A stretch of 21,426 nucleotides of DNA from NCBI RefSeq assembly GCF_003334765.1, contig NZ_QOWT01000047.1. The stretch is one strand, 5' to 3'. Below the pieces are notes generated by a model that made no database searches, was not told where the DNA came from, and saw nothing but the letters and a program-made list of their open reading frames with translations. This stretch comes from Escherichia coli (GTDB lineage Bacteria > Pseudomonadota > Gammaproteobacteria > Enterobacterales > Enterobacteriaceae). Below are positions 13,601 through 17,580 of this stretch, piece by piece. Both the position numbers and the translations under genes were made by a program. How positions within the stretch are numbered: the first letter of the stretch is position 1; every line of letters starts with the position of its first letter.

Positions 13601-14030
13601 CGAACACAGATACATGATTTACCCGTTTGCTGACTACGGCTCACGCCGGGACCCTTCGGAAAAACCCTTTCTGCTTCAGCGAGTGAGTGCTGCGGGCACT
13701 CAGAGGCGCTGCCAGGGAGACAAAATTAAGTTTTTCAACTGTTTGGTAAAAATAATTAACATTTATAGGTAGTCGGGGCGTAAGCCAGTGCGTAGCACGC
13801 TCTCAAAAAATATTCCTGTGGGTTTCTTATCTGCAATAGGGAAATAACTCAGATAATTGATATATGAAAAAACAATACAATCGGGAAGACACAACTTTAG
13901 CACAGTAAAAGCTATTTGTATTTATGAGGAATAAAATATATATGAATAATAAAATATTTTTATTTTGCTATTGATTTTAATTTTTAAGATGATAGTACTT
14001 AATTATAAAAACAAAATAATGGAGGAAATT

Positions 14031-14456
14031 ATGAGTGCTATTAATGTGTTATCTCAGGAGGAAAAATTTATACATGTTGTTGATAAATTTATAACCCATA
14101 ATCACAACGGCGTTAATAACAATGTCTTTTATAAAAAACTTTATGTTCTCTTCGCCGGATATCATCTGAAGTATTTTTATTCACGGGCGCAATATCGCAA
14201 TTCGTGTTATCACGTTGATAATATCATGCAGATGTTTATGGGTGTCGTTTCTACCCTGAAGACCCCTCTGCTCAGGCAACTCGCAAACAGTGACACATTG
14301 CTGCATTGCCTGAATTCGCTCGTGAATTATATTTCAGGCAATCTGGATGAAGCAGAGCACATTTATGCTGATTTACTGGCACAGTATGAAAAGAAACGCA
14401 TTGCACGTTCTCTGGCTTATACACCACCAGGATCCGTGGTCAGGAAAAGACTGTGA
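14031..14456 (+). CDS. Hypothetical protein (141 aa from ATG 14031; ORF track begins at 13965)
   Basis: GGAGG RBS 8 nt before ATG 14031 (MSAINVLSQ…). C-terminal tail …EKKRIARSLAYTPPGSVVRKRL resembles the tail of the ankyrin protein at 17683-18636. Confidence 0.5.
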   Translation: MSAINVLSQEEKFIHVVDKFITHNHNGVNNNVFYKKLYVLFAGYHLKYFYSRAQYRNSCYHVDNIMQMFMGVVSTLKTPLLRQLANSDTLLHCLNSLVNYISGNLDEAEHIYADLLAQYEKKRIARSLAYTPPGSVVRKRL

Positions 14457-14539
14457 GACATCGGAAATGCGCCGGACAAGGCAGAGTATGGCAGAGTGAC
14501 ATAAAAGCAGTCGTTTCCCGCAAGATATTACCGGGCATT

Positions 14540-14573
14540 AAAAAGGCAGGATCCACCGATTTGGTGTCCTGCC
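14540..14573. terminator. Bidirectional terminator hairpin between convergent genes
   Basis: GGCAGGA-(15-nt loop)-TCCTGCC perfect 7-bp stem, flanked by AAAAA on the 5' side (T-run on the minus strand) and a T-rich stretch on the 3' side. Confidence 0.5.
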
Positions 14574-14597
14574 TGGCGGGATTATTTTATTGTGGTC

Positions 14598-14918
14598 TTA
14601 CTTATCAACGACCTGCCAGCCATCATCTGTTTTGACCAGCTTGACAGCCGCTGTGCGTTTTTCGTTATCGACAACAGCTGTTACATTGCATTTATAGCTT
14701 TTATCCGATAGTTTTTCGCAGTCGTGTTTTTTGACTGATTTTAACTTCCGCAGCATGTCAGGCGTGATATCGTTTCTCGCTATGGATTTAACGATGGCAT
14801 TCGTCTGCTCCACGACCTTATTCATCGCAGTGTAAATATCCTGCTCAGACGGTTCACTGGTGCAGCCGGTCAGCAAAAAAATGGACGCAATGAGTGTGGT
14901 AAATGCATATGTTTTCAT
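14598..14918 (-). CDS. Small lipoprotein (106 aa)
   Basis: Signal peptide with lipobox LLTG|C (MKTYAFTTLIASIFLLTGC). Mature part ends …AAVKLVKTDDGWQVVDK. Confidence 0.7.
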   Translation of the reverse strand: MKTYAFTTLIASIFLLTGCTSEPSEQDIYTAMNKVVEQTNAIVKSIARNDITPDMLRKLKSVKKHDCEKLSDKSYKCNVTAVVDNEKRTAAVKLVKTDDGWQVVDK

Positions 14919-14944
14919 AAAATAATCCCAGACGGTAGAGTACG

Positions 14945-15343
14945 TTATTGAAAAAGGCCGGTTTTCATCTTGCTGTTGTTTTCAGAGAACGTCCACTTGC
15001 TGACGGTTTCGCCTTTAAATTCGATTTCCAGCGTTTTGGCCTGCGTCTGTGAACCCCCGGTCAGCAGTCCAATCACGGGAATGAATGTGGTGGCATCAAA
15101 CTGATTGTTGTCCATCGAATAAGTCCATTGTTCATTGCCACTATCAAGTGTAGTTTTGGTTTCGGGCTGACCGAATGCGGTAATGATTTCTGATTTCGTT
15201 GTTTTATTTTTGATGATTTTCGACTGCAGACTTTGTGATGTTTCTTTTTTTAGATGCTGGTTGCCTGATGTTGAACAGCCAGAAATAAGTAAAGAAGAAA
15301 TAAAAAACACAGAAATCATGAATCTGTTCATAAGTTTTCTCAT
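14945..15343 (-). CDS. Lipoprotein (132 aa) with BamE/SmpA-OmlA-like motif
   Basis: Lipobox LISG|C. Segment …EIITAFGQPETKTTLDSGNEQWTYSMD… resembles the BamE-type LGxP…W.Y motif. Possible alternative start at M5 (15331). Confidence 0.65.
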   Translation of the reverse strand: MRKLMNRFMISVFFISSLLISGCSTSGNQHLKKETSQSLQSKIIKNKTTKSEIITAFGQPETKTTLDSGNEQWTYSMDNNQFDATTFIPVIGLLTGGSQTQAKTLEIEFKGETVSKWTFSENNSKMKTGLFQ

Positions 15344-15380
15344 ATTAATTTTTTATGTTTGCGGTGGTGTGAAATTAATA

Positions 15381-15656
15381 TCATCTTATAAAAACAACTC
15401 TGTCTGCATATTTCTTTTTAATAATGCAGATAAGAATAATGACGCTGGCAAAAAACGTAATGACTGAGGCAGGAGTGCTGCCGGTCAATGAAAACACTAA
15501 CCAGGCGAGAGCTAATGCCACGAATTGAAACAGGAATGCCACACTGAGTGGACTTTCACCATAGGCCACTTTTGCATGGCAACCTTTGCAAACCCGCACA
15601 CCGTGTGGGCTTTGTGTAAAGCAGAAAGGGCAGCTAATCGTTTTATTATCCATCAT
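15381..15656 (-). CDS. Zinc-ribbon membrane protein (91 aa)
   Basis: N-terminal CPFC…(8)…CKGC four-Cys zinc-ribbon motif followed by two hydrophobic helices (FLFQFVALALAWLVFSL; VITFFASVIILICII). Confidence 0.6.
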   Translation of the reverse strand: MMDNKTISCPFCFTQSPHGVRVCKGCHAKVAYGESPLSVAFLFQFVALALAWLVFSLTGSTPASVITFFASVIILICIIKKKYADRVVFIR

Positions 15657-15733
15657 GACTCCGTAGCCTGATTTAAGGTGATGTATTTTTGAACATTTTC
15701 GATGAATGAACTGCTTTAGTAAAATTGCTTGTA

Positions 15734-15806
15734 CCGATCGATGGATCTCAGGCGATAGGTTATATCTATTATAACTAGATTATCGATATATAAAAACGAT
15801 CGATAT
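15734..15806. promoter_or_regulatory. Cluster of three GATC sites within four ATCGAT palindromes, 80-150 bp upstream of the zinc-ribbon/lipoprotein gene trio
   Basis: CCGATCGATGGATCTC at 15734-15749 and TATCGATATATAAAAACGATCGATATC at 15780-15806. Dam-site clustering in a promoter-proximal region; a regulatory role is inference. Confidence 0.3.
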
Positions 15807-15841
15807 CTTATTGACTATCACTAAAGTATGGACTAGCTAAC

Positions 15842-17077
15842 TTATGGTGCAGGATGGTTGTTGTTTTTAAATGATTGTTCTTTATTGGTATTTGTTGTCA
15901 TGGGATGACAGGGTGTCAGAATATGTAGGTGGAGGATTTGGTGGAAAGGATGTGCAGTGGCATGTAACAGAGACATGCCTCTGCGCCTGAGAAGTGCCAC
16001 AATATGGACGAGCAATACAAGCCATGAATACAGACGACGCTGGCGGGGTATCTGACGAGCTGTATTGTGCAGATTGCTCCTGAGCTGGATGATACCCACT
16101 GTCTCCTGTTGTCTTTCCAGACGAATTTTTTCTTCAAGCTGATGGATTTTCTCCAGAATCGTTTCCCGGTTTGCAGCCTGCTCTTCAGACTCGCATGATG
16201 GCACTGGCACTGGCACTGGCACTGGCACTGGCACTGGCACTGGCGCGGTTGTAGGTTCTATTGGCCTCTGGGCTTCTTTCAGTAAACTCAGATGCTCAGG
16301 CGTAAAATCAATCAGTGCTTGCAGGGAAGACCAGCCATATTTTTTACCCAACTGAGATGCTTTAAAGGCAATACCCTGGTATTGAAATGAAAATCCACTC
16401 ATTTTACCCGTAGTGGCGATATTGGGTTTGCAGGTCACTCCTTCCTGTTCCAGTAAGCGAACAAAGGTTAGTAAATCGGGATGGTGTGTTAATGCATTGT
16501 CGAGCAGGGCCTGCAACAGTGACTTAGGGCAGGGAGCTGCTGTGCGTTCTGCCATCATCAGTTCATTACGGGAAGGCTTCCTTTTATCCTGGCGGCTACT
16601 GCCGGTTACACCCGTAGTTTCGGTGAGGCCGTGTACTCTCTCCAGCTCACTGATAATCCGTGTGCCGATAAGATTTTCATTTTTCCCCAGGTACAGTTTT
16701 CCACCGACCATGTTAATACGACTTGCAATGATATGAATATGCTGCCCATCCGGATCATCGTGCATGATATAGCAGCGAAGATGGGTGTCAGTGAAGCCCA
16801 TTCGGGCCATATAATCGTCAGCGAATGCTGCCCACTGTCTGTTTGACAGTTTCTCACCCTTTGGCAGGCGAAGTGAATTATGCCAGACAGGTTTGGCGAC
16901 ATCGGGACGCAGCAGTCGGGTGCCTTCAAATTCACTTATAAGCTCAGCAGCAGTGCTACCCGTCATGTTGCCACCGATGACATAAGGCGTGATTTTGTGG
17001 TGAGAACCTGACTTCAGGCTATAAATAACCACACCTGTGAATTGTTTACCCCTTTTTATTTTCTGCATGCCTTTCAT
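15842..17077 (-). CDS. Plasmid mobilization relaxase (MobA/VirD2-like relaxase domain), 411 aa
   Basis: N-terminal candidate catalytic Tyr (…VVIYSLK…) and histidine-triad motif HDDPDGQHIHIIASRIN (HxDxDxxHxHxxxxxxN). Start ATG overlaps the mobC stop (ATGA). Central (PV)7 linker. C-terminal about 80 aa is unusual in composition and the gene may be 3'-degenerate. Confidence 0.8.
   Translation of the reverse strand: MKGMQKIKRGKQFTGVVIYSLKSGSHHKITPYVIGGNMTGSTAAELISEFEGTRLLRPDVAKPVWHNSLRLPKGEKLSNRQWAAFADDYMARMGFTDTHLRCYIMHDDPDGQHIHIIASRINMVGGKLYLGKNENLIGTRIISELERVHGLTETTGVTGSSRQDKRKPSRNELMMAERTAAPCPKSLLQALLDNALTHHPDLLTFVRLLEQEGVTCKPNIATTGKMSGFSFQYQGIAFKASQLGKKYGWSSLQALIDFTPEHLSLLKEAQRPIEPTTAPVPVPVPVPVPVPVPSCESEEQAANRETILEKIHQLEEKIRLERQQETVGIIQLRSNLHNTARQIPRQRRLYSWLVLLVHIVALLRRRGMSLLHATAHPFHQILHLHILTPCHPMTTNTNKEQSFKNNNHPAP
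16201..16242. repeat. Perfect hexanucleotide simple-sequence repeat (GCACTG)x7, in-frame in the relaxase gene (encodes PVPVPVPVPVPVPV)
   Basis: Seven perfect tandem copies read directly from the sequence. Confidence 0.9.
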
Positions 17078-17481
17078 GGGTCTGACTCCAGAAATGTTGA
17101 GGGAATAAGGTGATCCCTGAGAGTTTTGATTTGTCTGCGCAGGGCGAAGAGTTCTGTACGGGTCAGTTCGCTGTCAGGGCTTTTGCTGTCGAGATGACTC
17201 AACAGGTAGTTTAAATCCTGTGAAAGGCTGCCAAGTTTTATCCATGCTTCACGATTGATTTCTGGCAGAACCGGCGGGAGTTTATTCAGGGAAGCCATCC
17301 TGAGCCATTCTCCTTTTTTATACTGACCTCTTTTACTGTCGAGAATAATTAATTCTTCTTCATTTAATCTGACACTGATGCAGTGATGTCGTATTTCATT
17401 CTCAGGAAATTTGTCAGTATGGAATTTACCGCGTTTTGATACTCTGGTTATATCATCATCATTACTCATGTCACTGTTCAT
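17074..17481 (-). CDS. MobC-family mobilization/relaxosome accessory protein (135 aa)
   Basis: Segment …WIKLGSLSQDLNYLLSHLDSK… fits the MobC (L.kiGnNlNQiar) motif. Sits immediately upstream of and translationally coupled to the relaxase. AGGAT RBS. Confidence 0.7.
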   Translation of the reverse strand: MNSDMSNDDDITRVSKRGKFHTDKFPENEIRHHCISVRLNEEELIILDSKRGQYKKGEWLRMASLNKLPPVLPEINREAWIKLGSLSQDLNYLLSHLDSKSPDSELTRTELFALRRQIKTLRDHLIPSTFLESDP

Positions 17482-17580
17482 AGTTATCCTTTTATTTCAT
17501 GTTTATTACTACAGATAACCGATGAAATGAATAAGTCAAGTTGTTACGGGATAAATAATTTAATTATCTGGATTAAAAAA

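Follow-up and report, generated by a model that had tools for sequence, protein, structure and literature searches.

Three small envelope-protein genes that follow a relaxase gene in Escherichia coli belong to the backbone conserved in a family of integrative mobilizable elements of the Enterobacterales, because the two deep clades of this module have only six genes in common, the trio among them, while the flanks vary. We tentatively propose, by analogy with known exclusion systems, that these three genes (hereafter ORF1, ORF2 and ORF3) could be an accessory envelope module with which a resident island limits incoming conjugation or phage. This functional reading is drawn from location and context, because no characterised family is linked to the trio.

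The window (the whole stretch of DNA analysed, 21,426 nucleotides of contig NZ_QOWT01000047.1) is an E. coli chromosomal island. The chromosome NZ_CP148275 is 100% identical to it over positions 13900–17600, and its copy of this stretch is flanked by a tRNA gene and an ssrA remnant. The earlier note on this DNA had described three co-directional small genes, encoding a four-cysteine zinc-ribbon protein with two transmembrane (TM) helices and two lipoproteins, and both the ORFs and the orthologue alignments bear this description out. The ORFs as called are tightly spaced and all on the minus strand (15381–15656, 14945–15343 and 14598–14918). Since orthologue alignments and RefSeq agree on two other starts, that of ORF1 was corrected to 15653 (90 aa) and that of ORF2 to its second Met, at 15331 (128 aa). 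Opposite-strand ORFs lying over the trio (e.g. 15183–15467, plus strand) were set aside because conservation follows the minus-strand frames. The coordinates of the six core genes and of the associated elements are given in Table 1.

Table 1. Core genes and non-coding elements of the module in the window
Feature	Position	Strand	Evidence
MobC-like relaxosome accessory, 135 aa; first of the six core genes	17074..17481	-	Synteny with the relaxase at every complete locus
Relaxase, 411 aa, MOBP-type, HxDx5HxH motif	15842..17077	-	NCBIfam, RefSeq name, plasmid relatives
Conserved non-coding element	15690..15815	-	Top column conservation of the module
ORF1, 90 aa, zinc ribbon and 2 TM	15381..15653	-	Sequence, family alignments, dN/dS
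ORF2, 128-aa lipoprotein	14945..15331	-	Lipobox, predicted fold, phrog_3135, dN/dS
ORF3, 106-aa lipoprotein	14598..14918	-	Lipobox, model, distribution
Terminator-like hairpins between convergent ORF3 and 141-aa gene	14540..14582	.	Sequence reading
Convergent 141-aa gene	14031..14456	+	Co-conserved with the module

The relaxase scores with the NCBIfam models MobB (1e-15), TraI_MobP (5e-14) and MbpB (1e-10), all far under the curated cut-offs, and its RefSeq name is "relaxase/mobilization nuclease domain-containing protein". Over its N-terminal 250 aa, it shares 43–50% identity with relaxases of small plasmids, of which the pWES-1 one is typed MOBP. A PV-repeat linker is also present in the relaxase (~16199–16243). 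The MobC-like protein has no direct family match in NCBIfam; the related plasmid relaxases have an annotated MobC upstream. At the other end of the module, the hairpin 3′ of ORF3 reads GGCAGGA...TCCTGCC on the minus strand and is followed by TTTTT. The convergent gene was found in 14 of the 16 GTDB loci described below, as well as in Salmonella and E. coli variants. Its product has no predicted signal peptide or TM segment, and no family match in NCBIfam, PHROGs or PADLOC.

For the distribution of the module, one genome per GTDB species was scanned with the ORF2 alignment. This search gave 16 loci, in Citrobacter, Kluyvera, Phytobacter, Superficieibacter, Pseudocitrobacter, Enterobacter, Pluralibacter, Photorhabdus and MAGs. 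Every sufficiently long locus presents the same gene order, i.e. mobC-like, relaxase, ORF1, ORF2, ORF3 and, in convergent orientation, the 141-aa gene, and the spacings are kept even at only ~50% relaxase identity. Salmonella contigs show the same six-gene arrangement, and the module is also found in Citrobacter, Klebsiella, Enterobacter, Cronobacter and Photorhabdus. The expectation of the earlier note that the three genes are co-conserved elsewhere holds in all 16 GTDB loci, in Salmonella and in 272 of 5,426 complete E. coli genomes (~5%), where the trio is always chromosomal and usually in one copy. The sole plasmid match at the DNA level, OX345050.1, is actually a piece of the same island on a 3.6-kb linear contig and not a plasmid. 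Pairwise dN/dS of ORF1–3 against orthologues is 0.07–0.28 (ORF1 0.07–0.28; ORF2 0.07–0.27), with dS up to saturation, and all three genes are under purifying selection. Around the core, the flanks are variable and carry defence cargo and toxin–antitoxin genes (Kiwa, SIR2, PLD, AAA_13 and TacAT) as well as UvrD-like genes. Also found there are two tyrosine recombinases and, after them, a larger protein (annotated as DNA-binding in one E. coli genome); this arrangement recalls the GInt islands (PMC5385486), as a resemblance only.

As to whether the three genes always travel together, which had been asked at the first description of the locus, the six-gene core is indeed syntenic, but the trio is composite and not an indivisible unit, because ORF1 can be present where the lipoproteins are missing and phages carry ORF2 on its own. 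In E. coli D8, the mobC–relaxase–ORF1 segment is directly followed by a terminator and the convergent gene, ORF2 and ORF3 being absent.

ORF1 carries the motif CPFC-x10-CKGC, which is invariant in the module orthologues and nearly so in the wider family. These two CxxC knuckles in a short N-terminal domain are those of a DZR-type zinc ribbon, with predicted zinc binding; the Pfam DZR profile is matched by ORF1 with an E-value of 0.006 and by 17 out of 22 family members at E ≤ 0.1. Two hydrophobic helices (~36–56 and ~63–78), separated by a 6-residue loop, precede a basic C-terminal tail, KKKYADRVVFIR, conserved as (K)YADRVVFIR. ORF1 is therefore predicted from its sequence to be an N-in/C-in inner-membrane hairpin, with the zinc ribbon and the basic tail in the cytoplasm. 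A profile search of 1.84 billion representatives gave, at E ≤ 1e-3, a family of 231 clusters at 50% identity, whose members are mostly 90–105 aa long and share the same architecture and the C-terminal motif RVxFxR. Generic zinc ribbon excepted, this family is absent from Pfam, NCBIfam and PHROGs. The label DUF983, given once in UniRef to one member of an ORF1-like cluster, is not among the Pfam matches of ORF1 or of 22 diverse members.

Several relatives of ORF1 lie in plasmid-like contexts. One of them, P0305 (C-terminus IYADRVVFQRR), is found on circularly permuted 3.8–3.9-kb metagenome contigs whose only genes are those for Rep, a small HTH protein, a MobA/MobL (MOBQ) relaxase, a MobC-like protein and the ORF1-family member. 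Others, with 32–37% identity, come from plasmid records of 30–45 kb (Klebsiella, Citrobacter, E. coli, Salmonella). In the two plasmid records examined, a different small lipoprotein gene lies 5 bp upstream of the ORF1-like gene and, in one of the two, a type-4 pilin gene is located just upstream of this pair. Distant members of the family have mixed contexts, ordinary chromosomal ones included.

ORF2 has the lipobox LISG/C with a Ser at position +2, and is probably located in the outer membrane because it lacks the Lol-avoidance Asp at this position. It is predicted to adopt a BamE/OsmE/BLIP-like fold, i.e. the two helices and three strands of BamE borne by a lipoprotein. Compared with BamE, OsmE and BLIP, its identity is ~18% and its strands are much longer. 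The Pfam BamE profile (PF04355, SmpA_OmlA) is not significantly matched (i-E 0.19), and the ORF2 family profile has no sequence match in the PDB. Moreover, in contrast to the housekeeping bamE locus, ORF2 and its relatives are carried by mobile elements (islands, prophages and Burkholderia plasmids), the homologues on Burkholderia MPF_F plasmids being annotated "bamE". The PGAP name of ORF2, "SEN1984 family lipoprotein", is carried by the identical protein WP_001079017.1 in recent RefSeq annotations; no SEN1984-family model scored for ORF2 in NCBIfam release 20.0.

The relatives of ORF2 form more than 350 clusters at 90% identity across the Enterobacterales, with a branch outside the islands at 37–46% identity, and ORF2 matches phrog_3135 (5e-24), a PHROGs family of unknown function. 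Such relatives are encoded by 134 IMG/VR contigs. Among the best 80 of these 134 contigs, 3 are the island itself, ~51 carry the gene in the lambdoid immunity region, where a co-oriented cI precedes it and kil or N follows it, and ~21 carry it within the tail-gene region. Neither ORF1 nor ORF3 was found near the ORF2 relatives of phage contexts in these 80 contigs. The prophage relatives of ORF2 occupy classic moron sites, either after cI or among tail genes.

ORF3 presents the lipobox LLTG/C and two invariant Cys, and is predicted to be a small periplasmic lipoprotein with a disulfide. In its model (pLDDT 82), one long helix lies against a four-stranded antiparallel sheet, and the modelled structure is a generic cystatin/NTF2-like half-fold. 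Foldseek against the PDB gave nothing at E ≤ 1e-3, and weak NTF2/cystatin-like matches (N-terminal domain of PBP2a, TcpC) were not accepted as homology. The NCBI name of ORF3, "cell wall-binding protein", is without Pfam or NCBIfam support and looks like a signal-peptide carry-over, because relatives elsewhere are called Lpp, YajG or EscJ. The earlier statement that none of the three is a known named protein is thus right for characterised families, and has to be amended for names, since ORF2 and ORF3 both bear one. According to NCBIfam and Pfam, none of the trio belongs to a characterised housekeeping lipoprotein family either, as the same note had supposed. ORF3 matches phrog_6360, a PHROGs family of unknown function, and is confined to the module, with no plasmid match and viral matches that are essentially the island itself only. 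A match to Cor (phrog_1119) covers residues 7–40 only, i.e. the signal peptide and lipobox, and weak PHROG matches to Rz-like proteins or spanins are likewise limited to the lipoprotein signal peptide and lipobox.

The gap between the relaxase gene and ORF1 is 185 bp long, and within it lies a GATC-rich element of ~120 bp that is more conserved than any other stretch of the module. Column conservation in this element is 0.83–0.90, versus 0.7–0.85 in most coding stretches and ~0.45 upstream of mobC. Within the element are three ATCGAT-like boxes that each bear a GATC, an invariant block of 31 nt, CATCGATCGGTACAAGCAATTTTACTAAAGC, and a TATAAT/TATGAT hexamer, with which the inverted repeat TGATAG/CTATCA overlaps. 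The element is kept in the lipoprotein-less D8 variant. No Rfam family matches it, its single-strand DNA gives no significant fold and no genuine plasmid contains a match, and blastn-short against small MOBP/MOBQ plasmids gave chance words only. It may be the promoter/operator of ORF1–3, possibly Dam-sensitive, or the oriT of the island.

Scans for known systems returned little. PADLOC-DB v2 gave zero matches at E ≤ 1 for all six core proteins, and NCBIfam and Pfam gave sub-threshold noise only for ORF1–3 and their neighbours, relaxase excepted. Families of the TraT, TrbK, Eex/EexN, TraS and Sfx types were absent for ORF1–3 among the NCBIfam matches at E ≤ 1 and the Pfam matches listed, and no homology to exclusion lipoproteins of the Cor/Llp type was found beyond the signal peptide. 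The PDB sequence search with the family profiles returned designed helical repeats and a signal-peptide match, which are artefacts. The entry-exclusion system of pKPC_UVA01 is TrbK and is unrelated to the trio. Apart from the ROD21 paper for SEN1984, no literature naming the protein accessions of the trio was found.

In the ROD21/EARL segment SEN1980–SEN1984 of Salmonella Enteritidis, a relaxase is followed by SEN1981A (an 87-aa membrane protein) and by lipoproteins including SEN1984, for which the Phyre2 prediction is also BamE-like (PMC3198454, PMC10655114). The layout relaxase–membrane protein–lipoprotein is the same as in our module, SEN1981A being likened to ORF1 by description only. The segment differs by its MobA/MobL (MOBQ) relaxase, its other lipoproteins (SEN1982, 180 aa) and another integration module. 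ROD21 is virulence-associated, and SEN1982, the neighbouring lipoprotein, has been reported to affect organ colonisation (PMC10655114).

In the exclusion reading, ORF1–3 would be the accessory, envelope-acting half of the six-gene mobilization core of integrative mobilizable islands. The resident island would express them, probably by way of the conserved region preceding ORF1, and the envelope so altered on the recipient side would impede further DNA entry, by helper-type T4SS conjugation or by phage infection. The lipoproteins would bind or mask a component of the envelope at the outer membrane, in the manner of TraT, Sfx, Cor and Llp, and ORF1 would act at the inner membrane, in the manner of TraS or Eex-type proteins. 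To our knowledge, exclusion by mobilizable islands has been documented once, for Sfx in 2024. Sfx is a surface-exclusion outer-membrane lipoprotein of IncC plasmids and of some integrative mobilizable elements (Rivard et al. 2024, PMC11493245). Like the island lipoproteins studied here, it is found on a mobilizable island without its own T4SS, as an accessory gene near the transfer genes. Sfx acts in the resident cell against incoming conjugation, whereas the equivalent for the trio is only proposed. It is also a single protein of 286 aa whose donor target is TraN, while ORF2 and ORF3 (128 and 106 aa), set apart from it by description, are paired with an inner-membrane zinc-ribbon partner. The TraS (inner membrane) and TraT (outer-membrane lipoprotein) proteins of F, TrbK of RP4 and Eex of pKM101/SXT are likewise small and encoded in or next to transfer genes, and the classical exclusion pairs span both membranes, as does the trio. 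However, these systems target their own T4SS (TraG/VirB6, TraN), while the island encodes none; therefore, no cognate donor target can be named. In phages, the ORF2 homologues are lone lipoprotein genes, situated at the kinds of site that Cor (phi80/N15/T1), Llp (T5) and the genes at the lambda rexAB position occupy; the similarity to Cor itself lies in ORF3, not ORF2, and in the signal peptide only.

Six observations count for exclusion. All three genes encode envelope proteins, no such genes directly follow the related plasmid relaxases examined, and the phage relatives of ORF2 lie at sites of exclusion or conversion genes expressed by lysogens. In addition, the fold predicted for ORF2 is that of a module for protein binding or inhibition, one natural variant does without the lipoproteins, and Sfx is a published precedent for exclusion by an island-borne outer-membrane lipoprotein (PMC11493245). 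Against it, there is no sequence or profile similarity to proven exclusion factors, Cor or PADLOC models, and distant ORF1-family members are found in ordinary chromosomal contexts. Moreover, as the distributions of ORF1, ORF2 and ORF3 differ, the three may act separately. A transfer function would account just as well for the position directly after the relaxase and for the ORF1 found on minimal MOBQ plasmids. The exclusion idea of the earlier note thus keeps circumstantial support, from the lysogeny-expressed moron sites of ORF2 homologues and from Sfx, but not that of homology to proven exclusion proteins.

A transfer function, the main rival, is rather doubtful in our view, being ranked just below exclusion. 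The trio would then be a mobilization accessory of the donor, ORF1 using its cytoplasmic zinc ribbon and basic tail to tether the relaxosome to the inner membrane or to a helper coupling protein and the lipoproteins remodelling or docking on the helper apparatus. The trio does lie directly downstream of mobC–relaxase, in the same orientation, in every locus, the relaxase keeps ORF1 when the lipoproteins are lost, and an ORF1-family gene is one of only five on 3.9-kb Rep and MobA/MobL plasmids. The conserved element preceding ORF1 may serve as an oriT, and SGI1, which replaces TraN, TraG and TraH of its helper, is a precedent of an island reshaping a helper apparatus (PMC5704250, PMC11493245). 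However, the related plasmid relaxases examined are accompanied by MobC (or by a small gene upstream) and not by ORF1–3 directly downstream, the ORF2 homologues thrive alone in phages without conjugation genes, and no similarity to a known Mob accessory or T4SS component was found. A small gene on a mobilizable plasmid may also equally be an exclusion gene, as debated for mbeD of ColE1.

It is unlikely that the three genes are independent and merely linked envelope morons, i.e. host-fitness or virulence factors (serum or stress resistance) like Bor, Iss or TraT. This would agree with the different phylogenetic ranges and contexts of the three families, with the location of SEN1984, the namesake of ORF2, in virulence-associated ROD21 beside SEN1982 (PMC10655114), and with the link of OsmE- and BamE-like folds to envelope stress. 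However, the gene order, the 25–50-bp spacings and the single terminator are kept across deeply diverged modules, and ORF3 was never found outside them. In plasmid records, another and unrelated case of an ORF1-like gene lying 5 bp from a small lipoprotein gene also suggests a functional partnership.

Anti-phage defence or abortive infection, with ORF1 as a membrane-disrupting effector and the lipoproteins sensing or gating, or a lysis/immunity cassette, are very improbable, although envelope-based phage defence and a lysis/immunity module had been raised earlier: the variable defence cargo of these islands (Kiwa, SIR2, PLD, AAA_13, toxin–antitoxin), the ORF1 topology resembling small holins or effectors (two TM helices and a basic C-tail, class-II-holin-like) and the weak spanin matches of ORF3 speak for them, but none of the six proteins has a PADLOC match, the trio is a component of the conserved backbone rather than of the variable cargo, ORF1 is likewise known from minimal plasmids and ordinary chromosomal settings, no muralytic gene (endolysin) or i-spanin is present in the module, the sole periplasmic segment of ORF1 is a loop of ~6 residues, and the spanin (Rz-like) and Cor matches cover only the signal peptide and lipobox.

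A more specific form of the exclusion reading seems unlikely to us as well. ORF1–3 would be a previously unrecognised trans-envelope exclusion system, blocking helper T4SS transfer and/or phage entry, and switched by the GATC-rich element (e.g. by Dam-dependent phase variation or by induction on entry). If this is true, the prophage relatives of ORF2 would be a new family of superinfection-exclusion lipoproteins.

Whatever its function, the module defines three uncharacterised families, including a zinc-ribbon/2-TM family of ~230 clusters recurring on mobilizable elements and BamE-fold lipoproteins present in at least 134 viral contigs. The module is common and belongs to the backbone of islands ferrying anti-phage defence cargo. 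If it aids mobilization, it would represent a new class of Mob accessory. If it is an envelope barrier, it would be the second island-borne one, unrelated to Sfx and far more widespread, and would bear on the movement of plasmids, including resistance plasmids, and of phages in enteric populations.

Conservation within the mobilization module peaks in the non-coding element that separates the relaxase gene from ORF1 (inner-membrane zinc-ribbon protein), even between modules whose relaxases are only ~50% identical. This element contains three ATCGAT-like boxes, each with a GATC, and a -10-like TATAAT with an overlapping inverted repeat TGATAG/CTATCA. Its invariant block is CATCGATCGGTACAAGCAATTTTACTAAAGC. 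We consider the element a candidate Dam-sensitive promoter/operator or oriT. The gene convergent to the trio formed by ORF1 and the lipoprotein genes ORF2 and ORF3 accompanies the mob-trio core at nearly all loci, with identity down to ~43%. Its 141-aa product has no family match, no signal peptide and no TM segment, and may regulate the module. Within the relaxase itself, indels of the module alignment were found at a (Pro-Val)n linker, whose length differs among E. coli strains: the relaxase gene measures 1272 bp in strain TB4019, the one examined, vs. 1236 bp in the window, and the same 36-bp longer match was found in three further genomes.

Positions of the features in the window and in the comparison loci
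Feature	Locus	Coordinates	Strand	Remark
Non-coding element, relaxase-ORF1 gap	window	15690-15815	minus	highest conservation in the module
Convergent 141-aa gene	window	14031-14456	plus	co-conserved with the mob-trio core
(Pro-Val)n linker of the relaxase	window	16199-16243	minus	residues 279-293
Module variant: mobC-like, relaxase, ORF1, convergent gene	L031	4450-7065		E. coli D8, NZ_CP010151; module variant without lipoproteins
ORF1-like + lipoprotein gene pair	L023	5696-6273		plasmid record
ORF1-like + lipoprotein gene pair	L024	5706-6273		plasmid record; whole record, L029 (NZ_CP026209)
ORF2 homologue	L019	3956-4336
ORF2 homologue	L020	3956-4336
ORF2 homologue	L022	4956-5336
ORF2 homologue, annotated 'bamE'	L021	5941-6339		Burkholderia glumae plasmid bglu_3p

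In the distant clade of Salmonella and E. coli islands (L026-L028 and L030), the six-gene core adjoins a tandem pair of tyrosine recombinases. Next to these come a protein of 548-624 aa, which carries a DNA-binding annotation in L030, and a small gene; the arrangement is similar to the GInt recombination module. Variable cargo of these islands includes Kiwa (KwaA/KwaB), SIR2, PLD, AAA_13, TacAT and a UvrD-like helicase.

ORF1 was also found without the two lipoproteins. In the natural variant of E. coli D8, the mobC-like gene, the relaxase and ORF1 are kept and both ORF2 and ORF3 are missing; a terminator hairpin lies directly 3' of ORF1, followed by the convergent 141-aa gene. Circularly permuted metagenome contigs of 3.8-3.9 kb (L034-L037), which look like tiny plasmids, encode only a Rep (PF03090), an 86-aa HTH protein, a MobA/MobL relaxase, a 105-aa MobC-like protein and a 95-aa ORF1-family protein ending in IYADRVVFQRR. 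An ORF1-like gene (32-37% identity) is carried by 30-45-kb plasmid records from Klebsiella, E. coli, Citrobacter and Salmonella. In both records examined, an unrelated 96-99-aa lipoprotein gene lies 5 bp upstream of it; on these plasmids, a zinc-ribbon/TM protein is paired with a lipoprotein a second, independent time. A type-4 pilin gene is located just upstream of the pair in L024/L029, and the one whole record examined (NZ_CP026209) also bears methylases, ankyrin proteins, H-NS and DotA/TraY.

Homologues of ORF2 (phrog_3135) are carried by lambdoid phages as stand-alone lipoprotein morons (L046-L122 from IMG/VR; L019, L020 and L022). Among the 80 best viral loci, ~51 have the homologue immediately 3' of cI and in the same orientation, and ~21 have it within a tail-gene region, where Ig-like and DUF6246 genes precede it. 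More than 100 Burkholderia plasmid records also contain ORF2 homologues annotated 'bamE'. The single record examined, bglu_3p, is an MPF_F conjugative plasmid, on which the homologue neighbours membrane proteins, a DsbD-N-like gene, a zeta toxin and a TraG_N gene.

Finally, in the alignment of ORF3 from the window with relatives (P0250-P0258), the residue at position +2, which follows the lipidated Cys, differs by clade, being Thr, Asn or Asp. Asp at this position would favour inner-membrane retention. The membrane in which ORF3 resides may therefore differ among variants, as judged from this residue.
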